DNA from: Escherichia phage vB_Ec-G9
Sequence record: PQ433351.1
DNA length: 44,261 bases
Reading direction: 5' to 3' (one strand)
The first letter of the stretch is position 1, and every line of letters starts with the position of its first letter. Positions 7,072-43,495 of this stretch are shown one piece after another. Made by a program: the position numbers and the translations under genes. The notes beneath the pieces were generated by a model. The model did no database searches and was not told the DNA's origin. It was given only the letters and a program-made list of their open reading frames with translations.

Positions 7072-7875
7072 ATGGCACGTAATTTTGATTTTGGCGCAGA
7101 GGTCACTAAGTCAGAAGGTAAAGTATTTAAGAACCCAGAAGTGGGCGACCATGAAGCTGTAATCTCTGGAATCATTCATGTTGGTTCCTTCCAAGATATC
7201 TTTAAGAAAGGCAATACCACTGAAGTTAAGAAGCCAGCAAACTTTGTTCTTGTTAAGATTGTCCTGATGGGTGATGATGACAAGAACGAAGATGATTCAC
7301 GCATGGAACAGTGGATGGCTGTGCCTCTGAAGTCAGGTGATAAAGCTACTCTGACTAAGTTCCTGAATGCAGTTGATCCTAAAGAACTGCTGGGTGGCTT
7401 CGATGACTTCATCGGTGAATGCCTGACTGCAACTATGGTTGGCTCTGGCGACAAGAATGATGATGGTACTTTCAAGTATGTTAACTGGAAAGGCTTTGGC
7501 GGTATGCCTGATAAGTTGAAGAAGCTTGTACTGGCTCAGGTAGAAGAGGAAGGTCTGTCTATGACAGGTCATATCACCTTCGACAAGCTGACCAAAGAAA
7601 TCCTTGATGACATCCCAGCTAACTTGGTACGTCAATACTTCCTGAACGAGACACCTCGTGGTAAGAACCTGTCTGTTGCTGGCTCTCACGTAGAAGCTAT
7701 TATCAAAGCTGCTCGTGAAGAAGACCCAGAGTGGAAGAAAGCCAAGAAGAAAGATGACGAGGATGCTACTCCAGCTAATCGTAAGTCTCTGGATACTGGC
7801 GAGTCTGTTCCACAGGAAGTACCTGAAGCAGAAGATACTCCTGCACCGGAGATGGATGAGGACGCGGAATATTAA
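7072..7875 (+). CDS. abundant protein with acidic C-terminal tail; candidate ssDNA-binding protein (267 aa)
   Basis: RBS AGGAG; highly biased (expression-type) codon usage; C-terminus EMDEDAEY; position and tail resemble T7 gp2.5 logic; sequence similarity not established. Confidence 0.6.
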   Translation: MARNFDFGAEVTKSEGKVFKNPEVGDHEAVISGIIHVGSFQDIFKKGNTTEVKKPANFVLVKIVLMGDDDKNEDDSRMEQWMAVPLKSGDKATLTKFLNAVDPKELLGGFDDFIGECLTATMVGSGDKNDDGTFKYVNWKGFGGMPDKLKKLVLAQVEEEGLSMTGHITFDKLTKEILDDIPANLVRQYFLNETPRGKNLSVAGSHVEAIIKAAREEDPEWKKAKKKDDEDATPANRKSLDTGESVPQEVPEAEDTPAPEMDEDAEY

Positions 7876-8104: not shown

Positions 8105-8120
8105 GTCTCACATGTGAGAC
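8105..8120. repeat. 16-bp perfect palindrome GTCTCACATGTGAGAC (copy 3)
   Basis: Exact; lies 15 bp upstream of promoter at 8136. Confidence 0.9.
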
Positions 8121-8135
8121 AAATCGGTGTCCGGT

Positions 8136-8159
8136 ATTTACTGGACACTATAGAAGAGA
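8136..8159 (+). promoter_or_regulatory. phage RNAP promoter
   Basis: TATTTACTGGACACTATAGAAGAG. Confidence 0.8.
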
Positions 8160-36978: not shown

Positions 36979-37128
36979 ATGCCATTAATCAAATCAGTCA
37001 AGCAAAGTGCTGTACGCCAGAACACAGAAGAGCTTATTCAATCAGGACGTGACCATAAGCAAGCTTATGCGATTGCCAAGGATGTACAACGTCGTGCTAT
37101 GAAGAAACCTTCTGCATCTTCTGCGTAA
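36979..37128 (+). CDS. hypothetical small basic protein (49 aa)
   Basis: Strong RBS AGGAGG; below ORF-track cutoff. Confidence 0.4.
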   Translation: MPLIKSVKQSAVRQNTEELIQSGRDHKQAYAIAKDVQRRAMKKPSASSA

Positions 37129-37154
37129 GCAGGTTAATATCTTAGGAGGTAATT

Positions 37155-37616
37155 ATGGAAGTTTGGAGGCCTATTGCTGGTATACCAGATTACATGGTTT
37201 CCTCCTTTGGTCGTGTTAGATCTCATAAAAGAGGTAAGGTTACTATACTAAACCCTCCGCACGACAAAGGAGGTTATCGTAATGTTGTGCTACGTGTTAA
37301 TGGTGAAAAGATAAATCGCAAGGTACATAGGCTTGTGGCAGAGGCTTTCTTACCTAACCCTCACGGTTTACCTCAAGTAAATCACAAGGATGAAGTAAGA
37401 GACAATAATCATGTAAGTAATCTGGAGTGGTGTGATTGTGCATACAACGTAGATTACTCTCAAGCAGCTACTTATACTGTGATGTGCCCTAAAGGTAATA
37501 TCTTAGTAGTAAGGAATGTGGCTAAGTTTTGTAGGGAAAACGGATTAAGCAGTGGTTCTTTTACAGATATGCTTAAGGGAAGACGTAAGCAACATAAGGG
37601 TTATCGCTTAGTGTAA
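37155..37616 (+). CDS. HNH homing endonuclease (NUMOD4 + HNH)
   Basis: WRPIAGIPDYMVSSFGRV (NUMOD4-like) and VNHKDEVRDNNHVSNLEW (HNH). Confidence 0.8.
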   Translation: MEVWRPIAGIPDYMVSSFGRVRSHKRGKVTILNPPHDKGGYRNVVLRVNGEKINRKVHRLVAEAFLPNPHGLPQVNHKDEVRDNNHVSNLEWCDCAYNVDYSQAATYTVMCPKGNILVVRNVAKFCRENGLSSGSFTDMLKGRRKQHKGYRLV

Positions 37617-37669
37617 TACTTAGTGAGAGGGCTATACATGCCAAGTGGAAAATTTGATATGTATATGCG

Positions 37670-37980
37670 TCAAGTGTCTCGCCCTCGCCCTCGCCGGGTT
37701 GTCCCCATAGGGTGGCCTGAGGGAATCCGTCGAAGACGGGCAGGGCTGATGTCCTCCTTGGCTAGTACAAGGGAAGACCGAGGGAACGCCTAGGACGGCC
37801 TAGGGAATGGTTTAGTGGCGGACAAGGTGATTGCCTTAGTGAAGCCTCTTAGTACATTCCTGAGGCCATTCAGGGCGTTTATGAGGCATTGACAGGGTGG
37901 GCGTGGGTGGGCTATCTGTTCGTTTCGTTCACTCCGCTTGCGCTACGTTCACTCGCTCACGTGTACCTTAGGTTGTTCCT
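37670..37980. other. GC-rich non-coding segment; candidate terminal-repeat / genome-end region
   Basis: No ORF of 60 aa or more on either strand in 37617-38418; composition unlike flanking genes; short direct repeat CGTTCACTC twice. Confidence 0.3.
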
Positions 37981-37990
37981 TGATGGATAG

Positions 37991-38093
37991 CTTAGGTTAG
38001 CCTTAGTGGACTACCTTAGTTATAACCTTAGTGCTTATCTTAGTAATAGCTTAGTAGTGTACCTTAGTAAGTCTTAGTGTCTTCTCTTAGTGA
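37991..38093. repeat. array of about 9 short [CT]CTTAG[GT] heptamer-like repeats at about 12-bp period
   Basis: GCTTAGG, CCTTAGTG, CCTTAGTT, CCTTAGTG, TCTTAGTA, GCTTAGTA, CCTTAGTA, TCTTAGTG, TCTTAGTG; further scattered copies to 38410. Confidence 0.8.
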
Positions 38094-38238
38094 TTGCACA
38101 TGCAAGCATGTAAGATGCCATTAGGTCGCGGTCGGTAGACCGCTAAAGAAAGAGAATAGTAATAAGATGCAGTAGGAGGAACACCAGAAACCTAGCCAAC
38201 CTAGCCTATCCTAGCTCTGTATCTATTGCTTTTCCTTA

Positions 38239-38254
38239 GTCTCACATGTTAGAC
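38239..38254. repeat. palindrome variant GTCTCACATGTTAGAC (copy 5)
   Basis: One half-site base changed. Confidence 0.75.
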
Positions 38255-38288
38255 AACCTAGCTTATTCTTAGTGATGATAACTTAGTG

Positions 38289-38317
38289 TTGACAAGATAA
38301 TCTTAGTGTAATACTAT
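38289..38317 (+). promoter_or_regulatory. host sigma70-type early promoter candidate
   Basis: TTGACA - 17 bp - TACTAT. Confidence 0.55.
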
Positions 38318-38389
38318 GCATCACGTAGGCGGTGCTGAGGCACCTAGTAGCCAGCTAGTAAGGCATACGAAGAGACTAGCGCTTACATT

Positions 38390-38401
38390 GCTCTTTAACA
38401 A
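38390..38401 (+). promoter_or_regulatory. boxA-like antitermination element (copy 1)
   Basis: GCTCTTTAACAA, extended TTGCTCTTTAACAATTTG, identical to E. coli rrn boxA core. Confidence 0.6.
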
Positions 38402-38460
38402 TTTGCTTAGTGTAACCTATGTATGCCGTGGTTAATTACTTATTGAATGAGGGATTAACT

Positions 38461-38640
38461 ATGACATTAAACAACCGTGAACTATCCGTTCTCTTCACTC
38501 TGTTGTGCTACATGATTCGTAACAACGAATTGCTTACAGATGACGAGTTGGCACTGTATCACCGCTTTCTTAACGAAGGTTGGACCGATACAGTTAATCA
38601 ATACCGTAACATGATAGATGAGTTGAGGGAGGGTAAATAA
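38461..38640 (+). CDS. early hypothetical protein (59 aa)
   Basis: RBS GAGGG before ATG 38461; ORF-track start 38419 lies inside an inverted repeat and lacks an RBS. Confidence 0.55.
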   Translation: MTLNNRELSVLFTLLCYMIRNNELLTDDELALYHRFLNEGWTDTVNQYRNMIDELREGK

Positions 38641-38864
38641 TGTATCAACATGAGGTATTCTTTGAATCAGCTAGCGAAGCTATTCGCTTCCGTGATGATA
38701 TGATGCAAGCTGGTGTAGGCGTTGATGTGTATCACTATTTGATAGATTACGACACTGAATATCACCGAGTTACCTTAGTATCTGAGTATGACAACCAAGT
38801 CATTACTGAGTATCTAGGCAGTGAAGATTACGATTACGATGAAGTAATCACGACAAATCTCTAA
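38640..38864 (+). CDS. early acidic Asp/Tyr-rich protein (74 aa)
   Basis: RBS GAGGGAGGG; ATG overlaps upstream stop; acidic C-terminus EDYDYDEVITTNL. Confidence 0.6.
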   Translation: MYQHEVFFESASEAIRFRDDMMQAGVGVDVYHYLIDYDTEYHRVTLVSEYDNQVITEYLGSEDYDYDEVITTNL

Positions 38865-38872
38865 ATTAACTG

Positions 38873-38901
38873 TTGACAGCCACGGCATACAAGGTTACAT
38901 T
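38873..38901 (+). promoter_or_regulatory. host sigma70-type early promoter candidate
   Basis: TTGACA - 17 bp - TACATT. Confidence 0.5.
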
Positions 38902-38934
38902 AAGCATCAAGACGGCGACGTCTTTAAACATCCC

Positions 38935-38946
38935 GCTCTTTAACAA
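38935..38946 (+). promoter_or_regulatory. boxA-like antitermination element (copy 2)
   Basis: CCGCTCTTTAACAAGATG. Confidence 0.55.
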
Positions 38947-38993
38947 GATGGCTAGTGTCTTGATAGGCTAACTGACTAACTAAGGTAATTATC

Positions 38994-39104
38994 ATGAAAG
39001 GTTTAATTTGTGTAGAACGTATGGTCAATGGTAAACTTGAAATATTACCACTGGAAAACCAATCTAGCTTCAAAGAGTGGTATGGCTGTTTCTCACTGAT
39101 TTAA
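38994..39104 (+). CDS. early hypothetical small protein (36 aa)
   Basis: ATG 38994; weak RBS; flanked by boxA copies and a short inverted repeat. Confidence 0.3.
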   Translation: MKGLICVERMVNGKLEILPLENQSSFKEWYGCFSLI

Positions 39105-39146
39105 AGTAAAGGCTGGCACTAGTCAGCCTATCAAGGCACTATCCTT

Positions 39147-39158
39147 GCTCTTTAACAA
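39147..39158 (+). promoter_or_regulatory. boxA-like antitermination element (copy 3)
   Basis: TTGCTCTTTAACAATTTG, 18/18 identical to copy 1. Confidence 0.6.
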
Positions 39159-39253
39159 TTTGGAAGGTAGCTTCTTAGTCGGGATAGGTTAGACCTAGGG
39201 CATTCTTTGAGTGCCCTATAATGTAACCTAACTAACTAATGAGGATTAATAAC

Positions 39254-39610
39254 ATGGCTATGTCTAATATGACTTACTCTCAGGTTTACAACACCGCTCA
39301 CGCTGCATTAGTTGAACGTATCTGGGATGATGCTATTGATTGTATCGATAACGCACATGATGCAATCCATGAGGTGGCGGATAGTGCTGTACCAATCTAT
39401 TATGCTGACATCTTCTCAGTGATGGCCAGTGAAGGCATCGACCACTTCTTCGAGGATTCTGGCTTAATGCCAGACACTAAGGATGTGACGGTCGTACTAC
39501 AAGCCCGTATTTATGAACAACTCACCATTGATTTATGGGAACGTGTTCAAGATATGATTGATGCGTACATCGACTCAGCCGAAGATTTAGAAGAAGAAGA
39601 GGAAGAATAA
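39254..39610 (+). CDS. ocr: Ocr-like DNA-mimic anti-restriction protein (T7 gene 0.3 homologue)
   Basis: MAMSNMTY... [18 protein letters not shown]...[13 protein letters not shown]...[15 protein letters not shown] closely matches T7 Ocr as recalled; acidic EEEEEE C-terminus; RBS GAGGA. Confidence 0.85.
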
Positions 39611-39612
39611 AG

Positions 39613-39726
39613 ATGGAAAAGCAATATAACTTTATCTTTTCTGATGGTGTAACCTTGAAATGCTCCTTACGATTCGCCCAGATTCGCGAGGAAGTGCTAG
39701 GTACTACATATAAACTATTTATCTGA
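39613..39726 (+). CDS. early hypothetical small protein (37 aa)
   Basis: ATG 3 nt after ocr stop; below ORF-track cutoff. Confidence 0.3.
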   Translation: MEKQYNFIFSDGVTLKCSLRFAQIREEVLGTTYKLFI

Positions 39727-39740
39727 CACTATAAGAGAGG
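39716..39740 (+). promoter_or_regulatory. phage-promoter-like variant (ACTATAAGAG)
   Basis: TATTTATCTGACACTATAAGAGAGG: upstream half matches, +1 region differs. Confidence 0.35.
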
Positions 39741-39805
39741 ATTTAACAGGGCGTTACTTGTTAGCGCCCGATTAAGTTTATCTCAATAAACCAAATAGGT
39801 GACTT

Positions 39806-40690
39806 ATGACTACTGAAAACACCCTCCTGTCTGTTCGTGAAGCTGCAACCGCTGAGATCAAGCAACACTTAGACAATATCGGCACTTCTTACATCAAAGT
39901 TGGCGCTTGTCTTAATGAGTTACGCGGTGACTTTGAAGGTCAAAAAGACTTTTTGGCTTATGTAGAATCAGAATTTGGAATCAAGAAAGCACAATGTTAC
40001 AAGCTGATGAGTGTAGCCCGTGTCTTTGAAGGCGATGATCGCTTTAAAGGCGTGGCGATGCGTGTAATGCTGGCACTTGTTCCTTTCGCTGATGAAAATA
40101 TCATCATGGAGAAAGCCGCAGAACTTGCCGCAGCGGGCAAGCTGGACACTAACGCCGTGAACGCCCTGATTGAGCCTAAGAAAGAGCCAAAGTCTGAGAC
40201 GGTACAATCCAAGGCTGAGCCTGTAAAACCGAAGGAGAACGCGACTGCGGCCGCAGAATTACAGGAAACGCAAGCGCCGCAGGAAGTGCCGCCAGCAAGT
40301 GAGTCGGATGACGACAAATCAGCACCGTGGGAAGAGGAAAGCAAGCCGGAAGCGCCAAAGGCCGCGCCACTGGACAACACGGCTAACACTGAAAACGCCG
40401 CTATGGCTGGCCTACTGGCACAAATTAAGGCACTGACTGAGCAATTACAGGCAGCTAACGACCGCATCGCCGCCCTAACCAGTGCACGTGAAAGCAAGAA
40501 GGCAGCCGCGCCTATGCTTCCCCAATTCAAATCTAAATGTCTCTATGCTCGCTTGGGTTTAAGCGCTGAGGAGGCAACGAAGAAAACAGCAGTTAACAAG
40601 GCACGCCGCGAACTGGTTAAGCTAGGCTATGGTGAAGGCCATGAAGCATGGGCCTTAATCTCTGAGGCAGTAGAAGAATTAACTAAGTAA
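39806..40690 (+). CDS. early protein with low-complexity Pro/Glu/Lys/Ala-rich central linker (294 aa)
   Basis: ORF immediately upstream of RNAP gene (position of T7 gene 0.7); noticeably GC-richer codon usage; no kinase motifs seen. Confidence 0.6.
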   Translation: MTTENTLLSVREAATAEIKQHLDNIGTSYIKVGACLNELRGDFEGQKDFLAYVESEFGIKKAQCYKLMSVARVFEGDDRFKGVAMRVMLALVPFADENIIMEKAAELAAAGKLDTNAVNALIEPKKEPKSETVQSKAEPVKPKENATAAAELQETQAPQEVPPASESDDDKSAPWEEESKPEAPKAAPLDNTANTENAAMAGLLAQIKALTEQLQAANDRIAALTSARESKKAAAPMLPQFKSKCLYARLGLSAEEATKKTAVNKARRELVKLGYGEGHEAWALISEAVEELTK

Positions 40691-40753
40691 CCTTATCGGT
40701 GGCATCTTCTTAGGTGTCACCTATTAAGGTTTCTTTCACTAGGAGTAAACAAG

Positions 40754-43381
40754 ATGCAAGACTTACACGCTATTCAACTTCAACTTGAAGAAGAAATGTT
40801 TAACGGCGGTATCCGTCGCTTTGAAGCGGACCAACAGCGCCAGATTGCATCCGGTAATGAATCAGACACGGCATGGAATCGCCGCTTATTGTCCGAGTTA
40901 ATTGCGCCAATGGCTGAAGGTATTCAGGCATACAAGGAAGAGTATGAAGGTAAAAGAGGCCGTGCACCGCGTGCATTAGCTTTCATTAACTGCGTAGAAA
41001 ATGAAGTGGCAGCGTATATCACGATGAAAATCGTTATGGATATGCTGAACACGGATGTAACCTTGCAGGCTATAGCCATGAATGTAGCTGACCGCATTGA
41101 GGACCAAGTACGTTTTAGCAAGCTGGAAGGTCACGCCGCCAAATACTTTGAGAAAGTTAAGAAGTCACTTAAGGCAAGTAAGACTAAATCATATCGCCAT
41201 GCGCACAACGTAGCGGTCGTGGCTGAGAAGTCAGTAGCTGACCGTGACGCTGATTTCTCTCGCTGGGAGGCGTGGCCTAAAGATACCTTGCTACAAATCG
41301 GTATGACCTTGCTAGAAATACTGGAAAATAGTGTATTCTTCAATGGTCAGCCTGTCTTTCTTCGCACCTTGCGCACTAATGGTGGCAAGCATGGCGTTTA
41401 CTACTTACAGACTAGCGAACACGTAGGTGAATGGATAACTGCATTTAAAGAGCACGTAGCTCAGCTGAGTCCAGCCTATGCACCTTGCGTTATTCCTCCG
41501 CGTCCGTGGGTTTCTCCGTTTAATGGTGGCTTTCACACCGAGAAGGTGGCGAGTCGTATTCGTCTGGTTAAAGGAAACCGCGAGCACGTCCGCAAGCTGA
41601 CCAAAAAGCAAATGCCAGCGGTTTACAAGGCTGTTAACGCTTTGCAGGCGACTAAGTGGCAGGTTAATAAAGAGGTTTTGCAGGTAGTAGAGGACGTTAT
41701 CCGTCTCGACCTTGGTTATGGTGTGCCTTCCTTTAAACCACTCATCGACCGTGAGAACAAGCCAGCTAATCCAGTGCCGTTAGAGTTCCAGCACCTGCGA
41801 GGCCGTGAACTTAAAGAGATGCTAACGCCAGAACAGTGGCAAGCTTTTATAAACTGGAAAGGAGAATGTACCAAGCTGTATACCGCTGAAACTAAGCGCG
41901 GAAGCAAGTCGGCGGCGACCGTTCGCATGGTAGGACAAGCGCGCAAGTACAGCCAGTTCGACGCGATTTATTTCGTGTATGCACTGGATAGCCGTTCACG
42001 CGTTTATGCGCAATCTAGCACGCTCTCTCCGCAATCAAACGACTTAGGCAAGGCATTGCTCCGTTTTACCGAAGGGCAGCGTCTTGATAGCGCTGAGGCG
42101 CTTAAGTGGTTTTTGGTGAACGGGGCGAATAACTGGGGTTGGGATAAGAAAACTTTTGACGTGCGCACCGCTAACGTGCTGGATAGCGAATTTCAAGACA
42201 TGTGCCGCGACATTGCAGCCGACCCGCTGACCTTCACTCAATGGGTAAATGCTGATTCCCCTTACGGCTTCCTTGCATGGTGCTTTGAATATGCGCGTTA
42301 TCTGGATGCACTGGATGAAGGCACGCAAGACCAATTCATGACGCACCTACCCGTCCATCAAGACGGTAGTTGCTCTGGTATCCAGCACTATAGCGCGATG
42401 TTACGCGATGAAGTAGGTGCGAAAGCAGTAAACCTTAAGCCTTCTGACTCCCCTCAAGATATTTATGGCGCGGTTGCGCAGGTTGTTATCCAGAAGAATT
42501 ACGCCTACATGAATGCAGATGATGCAGAGACTTTCACATCTGGAAGCGTCACACTTACAGGTGCAGAACTGCGTAGCATGGCTAGTGCGTGGGATATGAT
42601 AGGAATCACTCGCGGCCTGACCAAAAAGCCCGTAATGACACTACCTTATGGCAGCACACGTCTAACCTGCCGTGAATCAGTGATTGATTATATCGTTGAT
42701 TTGGAAGAAAAAGAGGCCCAACGAGCTATTGCCGAAGGGCGGACGGCGAATCCCGTGCACCCTTTTGATAATGACCGCAAAGACTACCTTACACCTGGTG
42801 CAGCCTACAACTATATGACGGCTTTAATTTGGCCTTCTATCTCTGAGGTTGTTAAAGCTCCTATAGTGGCGATGAAGATGATTCGCCAGCTTGCACGTTT
42901 CGCAGCTAAAAGGAATGAAGGGTTAGAATACACCTTGCCAACTGGCTTCATCTTGCAACAAAAGATAATGGCTACCGATATGCTCCGTGTATCCACTTGC
43001 TTGATGGGTGAAATCAAGATGAGTCTACAGATTGAAACTGATGTAGTGGATGAAACGGCAATGATGGGCGCTGCCGCTCCTAACTTTGTTCACGGGCACG
43101 ATGCTAGTCACCTTATATTAACGGTATGTGACCTTGTTGATAAAGGGATTACATCTATCGCAGTAATTCATGATTCTTTTGGCACTCATGCAGGCCGTAC
43201 AGCCGATCTACGCAACAGCTTAAGGGCAGAAATGGTGAAGATGTATCAAGGCCGTAATGCACTGCAAAGCCTGCTAGATGAGCACGAAGAACGCTGGTTA
43301 GTTGATACAGGAATCCAAGTACCAGAGCAAGGAGAGTTTGACCTTAACGAAATCTTAGTATCTGACTATTGCTTCGCATAA
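40754..43381 (+). CDS. single-subunit DNA-dependent RNA polymerase (T7/SP6 type)
   Basis: [39 protein letters not shown] and C-terminal SDYCFA match T7 RNAP catalytic and C-terminal motifs; 875 aa. Confidence 0.95.
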
Positions 43382-43454: not shown

Positions 43455-43470
43455 GTCTAACATGTGAGAC
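43455..43470. repeat. palindrome variant GTCTAACATGTGAGAC (copy 6)
   Basis: Mirror-image variant of copy 5; abuts promoter at 43471. Confidence 0.75.
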
Positions 43471-43495
43471 TTATTTACCGGACACTATAGGATAG
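43471..43495 (+). promoter_or_regulatory. phage RNAP promoter
   Basis: TTATTTACCGGACACTATAGGATAG. Confidence 0.7.

Follow-up and report, generated by a model that had tools for sequence, protein, structure and literature searches.

The early region and its inverted repeat

The subject of this study is an inverted repeat in the early region of Escherichia phage vB_Ec-G9 (sequence record PQ433351.1), the arms of which flank homologues of genes 1 and 2 of phage K1-5. The 44,261 nucleotides analysed (hereafter the window) are a circularly permuted complete Vectrevirus genome of the K1-5/K1E group, and the region around the repeat is 90–96% identical to Vectrevirus genomes (K1-5, K1E, EEc4, AAPEc6 and many others). 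The presence of an RNA polymerase gene (40754–43381) and of a homologue of ocr (gp0.3; 39254–39610, + strand, annotated as Ocr in relatives) assigns the phage to the SP6/K1-5 group (Autographiviridae, Molineuxvirinae). We take window position 37678 or thereabouts as the physical genome end, since this is where the K1-5 and EEc4 records start; the repeat therefore sits within the first kilobase of the host-transcribed early region.

Promoters for the phage polymerase (ending in GGACACTATAGAAG) occur 11 times in the window, and a motif scan of the window finds none between 33177 and 43480. The early region is thus served by host σ70 promoters only. Two good ones are predicted, both with 10 of 12 consensus positions and both on the + strand, as are all of the early-region features that follow: P1 at 38289–38317 (TTGACA-17-TACTAT) and P2 at 38873–38901 (TTGACA-17-TACATT). 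A sequence nearly identical to P1 is annotated as a 'putative host promoter' in Proteus phage Pm5460 (618–644).

The 5' arm, TGTAACCTATGTATGCCGTGG, lies at 38411–38431 and the 3' arm, CCACGGCATACAAGGTTACA, at 38880–38899. They are complementary save for one extra A (38419) in the 5' arm, and the repeat search splits them at this indel into stretches of 12 nt (100%) and 15 nt (93%). They enclose exactly two open reading frames (ORFs), the gp1 homologue at 38461–38640 (59 amino acids, with the ribosome-binding site (RBS) GAGGG 5 nt upstream of the start codon) and the gp2 homologue at 38640–38864 (74 amino acids). Up to this point an earlier reading of the sequence on its own (the sequence-only reading) had described the repeat correctly. 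It also had both arms followed by TTAATTA, which applies to the 5' arm alone; next to the 3' arm stands TTAAGCA, and this still belongs to the helix. The complementarity is in fact longer than first noted and joins 38404–38433 (30 nt, with A38419 bulged) to 38878–38906 (29 nt, starting 14 nt past the gp2 stop codon) through 29 pairs, among them one G·U and one U·G. We call this helix A.

The 5' strand of helix A begins 2 nt after a copy of boxA, the antitermination signal of the ribosomal RNA (rrn) operons. The window has three perfect copies of the 12-mer GCTCTTTAACAA, and all of them lie in the early region on the + strand: boxA 1 at 38390–38401, boxA 2 at 38935–38946 (28 nt past the end of helix A) and boxA 3 at 39147–39158. 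With up to one mismatch there are four matches in all, against 0.28 expected. The 12-mer is identical to the boxA of the Escherichia coli rrn leader, occurs in T7 at 813, and fits the consensus for a functional boxA, GYTCTTTAANA (PMC5725501). It stands on the host-transcribed sense strand, where the predicted promoter P1 precedes boxA 1 by 73 nt and the predicted P2 precedes boxA 2 by 34 nt. The sequence-only reading had missed the boxA copies, the promoter within the 3' arm and the fact that the repeat is one of a series of modules.

In T7, T3, K1F and most SP6-group copies boxA is followed by TCTGG or TTTGG (window 39147–39165; locus L015, 813–830; locus L099, 4213–4230), and the boxA of the E. 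coli 16S–23S spacer continues likewise (GCTCTTTAAAAATCTGGAT). Klebsiella phage PA45-9 has the form of boxA found in the spacer, GCTCTTTAAAAA. An extended linker thus seems to be conserved.

Long-range helices in the early transcript

When the 5' arm is paired with its partner, the duplex energy of helix A is −48.1 kcal/mol. The same arm on 150 dinucleotide shuffles of the downstream 1.7 kb reaches −26.2 ± 2.3 kcal/mol, with a minimum of −32.2 kcal/mol (z = −9.5). Folding of the transcript, which had been proposed as a check on the repeat, gives helix A as the closing helix in both the minimum free energy (MFE) and the centroid structure of 38375–38935, and again in those of the 939 nt leader from the P1 start to ocr (38324–39262). 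Transcripts started at P1 include both arms. On the transcribed strand helix A thus offers 29 bp with one bulge, the length of double-stranded RNA looked for in an RNase III site being at least 20 bp, or about two helical turns. An Rfam search of 37000–41000 (E ≤ 10) returned only sub-threshold snoRNA and miRNA noise, and so no known RNA family matches this interval.

An inner stem extends helix A in CrRp3 and several other relatives, where TTAATTACTT just past the 5' arm pairs with AAGTAATTA, the latter lying within the gp2 codons for a conserved C-terminal EEVI motif. The equivalent in the window pairs 38434–38443 with 38840–38848 with one mismatch.

A second helix follows. The 5' strand of helix B (38950–38969, 20 nt) starts 3 nt after boxA 2 and pairs with 39125–39144 (20 nt) over 20 bp, one of them mismatched; both the MFE and the centroid structure of the full early transcript contain it. 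Helix B encloses an ORF of 36 amino acids (38994–39104, RBS AAGG) that lacks an annotation in the K1-5 record; in relatives the loop of helix B holds other small genes, namely SP6 gene 1 and K1E gp2.5 and gp2.8. The third boxA comes 2 nt after the 3' strand of helix B, and the duplex search finds no long-range partner for it (shuffle z = +0.6). It is followed by a local irregular hairpin (39171–39244; fold z = −3.6) directly upstream of ocr, the first gene past the series of modules. The base of this hairpin pairs with the ocr RBS and the hairpin, when folded side by side with T7 813–937, resembles the R0.3 RNase III site of T7 and T3 in position and shape.

Conservation of the layout in relatives

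For comparison we took the early regions of some 40 phages and viral contigs of the SP6 group (hosts Escherichia, Salmonella, Citrobacter, Klebsiella, Proteus, Lelliottia and Pectobacterium) and for each boxA searched the next 40 nt for the best duplex within the following 1.7 kb. A locus search based on gp2 gave six loci only, and the diversity was supplied by a DNA pattern scan and by the phage collection. The resulting energies are bimodal: 63 of 102 lie at −33 kcal/mol or lower and the others between about −19 and −33 kcal/mol. In most of the weak cases no further boxA stands between the one searched and ocr or its equivalent, and a few come from loci that are cut before the 3' arm.

The boxA–helix–boxA layout is invariable. 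The 5' strand starts 0–3 nt after boxA in 52 distinct modules, and another boxA is found 1–29 nt past the 3' strand in 49 of them, the remaining three having degenerate boxA copies. The strands are separated by about 160–870 nt, and all helix arms are intergenic in all loci examined. The number and order of the modules vary. There are two to four boxA copies in the SP6 group and one in the Studiervirinae, and helix A precedes helix B in the window, whereas SP6 and phD2B have the reverse order and K1E has A–B–B.

Loop content varies too. The loop of helix A usually holds a gp1-like gene and, in last place, a gp2-like gene, while extra genes come and go (K1E adds gp1.5 and ACG-C91 adds two genes). 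Homologues of gp1 lie in the helix A loops of SP6 (as gp3), BP12B, PA45-9, K1E and others. The region is matched by 112 phage records, in which the arms persist even where the interior differs; with a 561 nt blastn query, distant relatives match only at the two ends (boxA plus arm, and arm plus promoter). Genes without the repeat, named by the sequence-only reading as the observation that would speak against it, were not seen: every gene-carrying phage examined has both arms. In Pectobacterium phage PP1 a helix of unrelated sequence (−52.6 kcal/mol) follows boxA, and its 3' strand carries a promoter (TTGCAT-17-TACATT) and then a boxA. Since the layout is the same and the helix sequence is unrelated, the architecture outlasts the sequence.

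Compensatory changes and the paired strand

For helix A we aligned 30 distinct sequences from phages of Escherichia, Salmonella, Klebsiella, Proteus and Lelliottia over boxA and the two arms. Gaps were replaced by N after MAFFT such that pairs stayed in register. Standard pairs occupy 97.0% of the cells, against 22–41% when the partner is slid by one to three columns. Compensatory changes are seen in 18 of the 30 pairs, and none of 500 column shuffles reaches the observed covariation score. Both arms are extensively rewritten in concert in the Proteus phages, in phD2B, in the Klebsiella 'type 5' helices and in one IMG/VR contig. An 8 bp core (GUAUGCCG/CGGCAUAC) is invariant except for one swap from U–A to A–U. 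Helix B behaves similarly in 14 sequences, with 98.2% of cells paired (26–44% in the slid controls) and compensatory changes in 6 of 20 pairs. In one of the alignments (A3) the two or three unpaired bases between arm and boxA were trimmed in two rows, and the K1E module at 1663 was represented by its proximal 3' arm.

The mismatches hint at the strand on which pairing matters. Transitions in a repeat that acts at the DNA level would give G·T and A·C mismatches equally often. In helices A and B taken together the cells that are not Watson–Crick comprise 65 G·U and 20 A·C as read on the + strand, a bias that is supportive rather than a formal test, as the cells are not phylogenetically independent. 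Wobble positions also persist across lineages: pair 21–91 of helix A is G·U in 22 of 30 sequences and pair 24–90 of helix B is U·G in 7 of 14. This bias, the fusion of the arms to a boxA on the same strand and the intergenic position of the arms together argue that selection acts on the + strand transcript. We regard the existence of a conserved + strand RNA helix as close to certain. The suggestion of the sequence-only reading that the repeat forms a long-range duplex on the early transcript, setting apart a two-gene mRNA for processing or stability, is therefore backed, to the extent that sequence can show it, by compensatory change across at least four genera; the mismatches favour RNA of the + strand and the helix is situated where T7 and T3 carry RNase III sites, which is consistent with a processing role.

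A predicted promoter within the 3' strand

The 3' strand of helix A covers the last base of the −35 hexamer, the spacer and the −10 hexamer of the predicted promoter P2. A single 29 nt stretch would thus double as promoter and as one strand of an RNA helix. The start of P2 is predicted near 38906–38909, past the 3' strand, so P2 transcripts would lack a helix A arm. Its equivalent in Proteus phage Pm5460 (1522–1551) was independently annotated by the authors of that record as a putative host promoter. In the 30 relatives TTGACA is nearly invariant and the P2 spacer covaries with the 5' arm.

Two cases separate pairing from promoter. Contig L076 (boxA at 7800) keeps a helix of the A type with no TTGACA beside its 3' arm, and helix B is without a promoter by consensus scan. 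The pairing is therefore not a by-product of promoter conservation.

Comparison with known systems

RNase III processing of early RNA in the T7 group is known already, as is the combination of boxA and a long-range RNase III helix in rrn operons. What appears to be new is a series of rrn-leader mimics around cassettes of translated phage genes, where one strand also encodes a promoter. Our literature search found no account of boxA copies or long-range helices in SP6-group phages; the 2004 genome papers on SP6 and K1-5 (Dobbins; Scholl) lay outside this search and may mention boxA.

As a control, the same pipeline was applied to an E. coli rrn operon, where it recovers the 16S-flanking helix with −54.4 kcal/mol. 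The leader boxA is followed at once by the 5' strand of this helix, the partner of which lies 11 nt past the 3' end of 16S. The helix is the primary RNase III target (reviewed in PMC8632103), and in a long-standing model the boxA region is kept on the polymerase by a complex of Nus factors, which 'delivers' the 5' strand to the complementary one (PMC8632103). The phage layout is identical to that of rrn. The boxA 12-mer is the same, the 5' strand follows it after 0 nt in rrn and after 0–3 nt in the phage modules, the helices are of comparable strength for the first 40 nt (−54 kcal/mol in rrn and −48 kcal/mol for helix A), another boxA stands past the 3' strand and before the next helix, and transcription is by host RNA polymerase from σ70 promoters. 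In contrast, the phage loops are translated mRNAs of about 120–870 nt instead of 1.5–2.9 kb of structured rRNA, the 3' strand of the phage has a built-in promoter, sequence similarity does not go beyond boxA and the first few bases that follow it, a boxB-like hairpin is present in only some phages, and phage cleavage and Nus binding are proposed by analogy.

T7, T3 and K1F have one boxA each, followed by a local hairpin with no long-range partner (−23 to −30 kcal/mol) in the duplex search. In all three boxA is directly upstream of R0.3, and the T3 record annotates an 'RNase III recognition site R0.3' 30 nt after its boxA. The R0.3 site of T7 is reportedly a classical RNase III site, described by Dunn and Studier. 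The RNase III sites of T7 and T3 (R0.3, R0.5, R1 and others) lie in the same region as the phage modules, between the cistrons of a polycistronic transcript made by host polymerase, and in the window boxA 3 and a hairpin shaped like R0.3 precede the same gene, ocr. Given this match of T7, T3 and K1F with the third module in position and shape, a boxA followed by an RNase III site is a shared theme. In T7 and T3 the site is a local hairpin that measures about 50 nt and contains internal loops, whereas helices A and B are near-perfect duplexes that have strands 160–870 nt apart and enclose whole genes. Such long-range versions around genes, built in the manner of rrn, are what the SP6 group adds to the common theme.

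The nut sites of lambdoid phages are alike in that a phage boxA RNA on early transcripts recruits host Nus factors, as it may by analogy do in the window. They differ in several respects: the window boxA has the rrn consensus and not the weaker lambda form, neither an N-like protein nor a conserved boxB is evident in the window, and the window boxA is coupled to a long-range helix whereas those of nut sites are not. About 55 prophage-sized IMG/VR contigs (L019, L021, L022, L026–L028 and some 50 more) carry an rrn-type boxA followed by a conserved element, GCTCTTTAACAAAC[AT]GAACCGCGTGACAGGTAAGCCG. They have no relation to the SP6 group and probably represent nut-like sites of temperate phages.

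Proposed mechanism and alternatives

We put the probability at about 0.57 that the repeat serves as an RNase III site within an rrn-like boxA module on the early transcript of the host polymerase. The module consists of an rrn-type boxA, the 5' strand of a 20–30 bp helix within 0–3 nt, a small gene cassette, the 3' strand and the next boxA. Host RNA polymerase starting from P1 would transcribe boxA 1, on which NusB/NusE and other Nus factors would assemble as on rrn leaders. Elongation would then be fast and resistant to Rho, and boxA with the adjacent 5' strand would stay tethered to the polymerase. Once transcription has proceeded by about 470 nt and the 3' strand is free, it would anneal with the 5' strand and host RNase III would cut the helix, freeing a gp1–gp2 mRNA with its ends clamped by the GC-rich inner half of the stem and severing the boxA tether. 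The next boxA could reload the factors for the next module, first helix B and then the R0.3-like hairpin upstream of ocr. If cleavage cuts the tether, as it does between 16S and 23S in rrn, one would expect each 3' strand to be followed by a new boxA. Transcripts from P2 would lack the helix and begin close to the end made by processing.

A number of observations weigh against this reading. Since the 8 bp core of helix A is invariant beyond one swap it carries no covariation, and it may be read sequence-specifically by some factor. There are 20 A·C cells, mostly at helix ends. More generally, covariation proves pairing and not which enzyme or factor reads the helix, and conservation of the 3' strand of helix A is confounded by its promoter role. 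The shuffle score of helix B (z = −4.0) is only moderate, with one shuffle nearly equal to it. Ribosomes translating the loop might hinder annealing. We know of no phenotype tied to the T7 boxA, and we infer cleavage, Nus binding and P2 activity alike from the sequence.

A helix that works without RNase III, as a structural panhandle closing the gp1–gp2 message, seems unlikely to us, and the same holds for the functions it could have, be it shielding of the ends from RNase E and 3' exonucleases, insulation of folding or ribosome recycling. The covariation and polarity data apply to it equally, as they do not identify the reader of the helix, and the arms just outside the RBS and stop codon as well as the GC-rich, invariant inner half of the helix would suit it. 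Nevertheless, as is generally known, a near-perfect duplex of 29 bp is a canonical RNase III substrate in E. coli; the identical layout in rrn operons is an RNase III site, T3 and T7 have RNase III sites at the homologous position after boxA, and a new boxA right after each 3' strand is most easily explained by cutting of the tether.

Explanations at the level of DNA fare considerably worse. The sequence-only reading had offered a small inserted module as its alternative, and recombination sites or terminal inverted repeats of an exchangeable or mobile cassette would account for loop content that varies while the arms stay and for a module order that differs between phages; conserved flanks could well promote cassette exchange as a side effect. 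Inverted repeats of about 20–30 bp flanking a short variable segment are also what MITE-like elements look like. Unlike in those, the phage arms are fixed in position in all relatives and covary with strand-specific wobbles, and the modules show no mobility gene, empty site or duplication. Among the loci examined there is no relative having the genes without arms and none with an empty site; the arms are present in every relative whatever lies between them. The loop contains two small ORFs without a Pfam domain and neither a transposase nor a homing enzyme, the arms are joined to RNA or transcription signals, one to boxA and the other to the promoter, and compensatory changes together with G·U wobbles at fixed positions on the + strand only are unexpected from DNA repeats or gene conversion. 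We consider a DNA-level role very improbable, and a mobile cassette with terminal inverted repeats was rejected, there being no presence/absence polymorphism, empty site or mobility enzyme in the loci examined.

It is more improbable still that the 3' arm is conserved only as P2 and that the 5' arm, devoid of an RNA role, is a leftover inverted promoter copy or a minus-strand promoter. The 3' arm does coincide with the conserved TTGACA-17-TACATT, yet spacers are normally unconstrained and this one takes part in a covariation with the 5' arm that involves 18 of 30 positions; beside the 5' arm there is no mirror image of the −35 hexamer, a consensus scan finds no minus-strand promoter in the 5' arm, and the promoter-free helices of L076 and type B speak against it as well. 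Finally, AT-rich intergenic DNA contains many short chance repeats, and chance complementarity is already refuted for helix A by z = −9.5 and by covariation across genera.

A wider picture can be drawn, to which we assign somewhat less than an even chance. In it, the entire early operon that the host transcribes in SP6-group phages would be made up of portable rRNA-operon leaders, each copy hijacking the rrn antitermination complex (NusA/B/E/G, SuhB and S4) while RNase III excises each cassette co-transcriptionally. The hijacked complex would speed transcription and with it genome entry, and would also serve as an RNA chaperone, bringing the tethered 5' strand to the partner that lies far downstream. 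Promoters embedded in a helix strand would give primary and processed transcripts nearly the same 5' end, and standard boxA–helix flanks would let early, possibly anti-host, genes swap as ready-made expression units.

Should the proposed RNase III module be correct, it would provide a small, non-essential and easily mutated model for the delivery of a tethered 5' strand to a distant 3' partner for RNase III, a question that is hard to study in rRNA operons: loop length, arm sequence and boxA could be changed in phage or plasmid with ribosome synthesis untouched. It would also explain how the genes expressed first are arranged and exchanged in phages of the SP6/K1-5 type, a group with therapeutic use against K1 E. 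coli, Klebsiella and Salmonella. For annotation, it would allow early-gene boundaries, small unannotated ORFs and start codons to be placed correctly in the subfamily.

The enclosed genes

The two proteins encoded in the loop of helix A correspond to gp1 (phrog_9275) and gene 2 (phrog_6403) of K1-5, both PHROG families being of unknown function. The start of gp1 at 38461, giving 59 amino acids, is supported by the RBS GAGGG and by the K1-5 annotation. In EEc4 (locus L002, 741–962) gp1 is annotated from an upstream ATG within the 5' strand of helix A (window 38419–38640), giving 73 amino acids.

The gp2 protein is acidic and rich in Tyr and Asp, as the sequence-only reading had it (pI 4.05; nine Asp, eight Glu, nine Tyr and no Lys). 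A single-sequence AlphaFold model, which is confident (pLDDT 83), has a β-α-β-β-α-β topology, that is, a generic ferredoxin-like fold. The best PDB matches in Foldseek are correspondingly generic (PII/CutA, E about 1e-3), and the top matches in a viral library include uncharacterised small proteins from CrRp3, PM116 and PP1. In CrRp3 a gene of about the size of gp2 is the last in the helix A loop.

That gp1 and gp2 might counter host defence, as had been proposed from their position and acidity, is a guess. Pfam and PADLOC give no matches for gp1, gp2 or the ORF of 36 amino acids, the silence of PADLOC saying little because it models defence systems and not anti-defence proteins. Pfam, PADLOC and the gp2 fold search likewise reveal no similarity to a known anti-defence protein such as an Ocr-like acidic DNA mimic, and the acidity of gp2 alone is not diagnostic.

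Other features of the region

A small hairpin with a GNRA loop (AAGACG-GCGA-CGUCUU; 38909–38924) lies between P2 and boxA 2 and is predicted by both MFE and centroid folding. In the rrn leader this place is taken by boxB, and the hairpin may have a boxB-like role. In relatives the loop is GGGA or GAGA and the stems differ, while SP6 and BP12B are without the hairpin. Another local hairpin, AGGCUG-GCACUAGU-CAGCCU (39110–39129), first seen as a 'terminator-like' match on the minus strand, overlaps the first 5 nt of the 3' strand of helix B. Relatives keep a hairpin there in differing register, which makes for a weak covariation test.

Just before the physical genome end, at 37155–37616, lies an ORF of 153 amino acids resembling an HNH-type endonuclease. 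A perfect 16 bp palindrome, GTCTCACATGTGAGAC, is present in four copies (window 2167, 8105, 24914 and 43641), with half copies at 38239 and 43460. The copy at 8105 is about 20 nt upstream of a phage RNA polymerase promoter containing GGACACTATAG at 8143, and the half copy at 43460 is directly upstream of the phage RNA polymerase promoter at 43480. The palindrome could be a hairpin signal (a terminator, a processing site or a protein site) for middle or late transcription.

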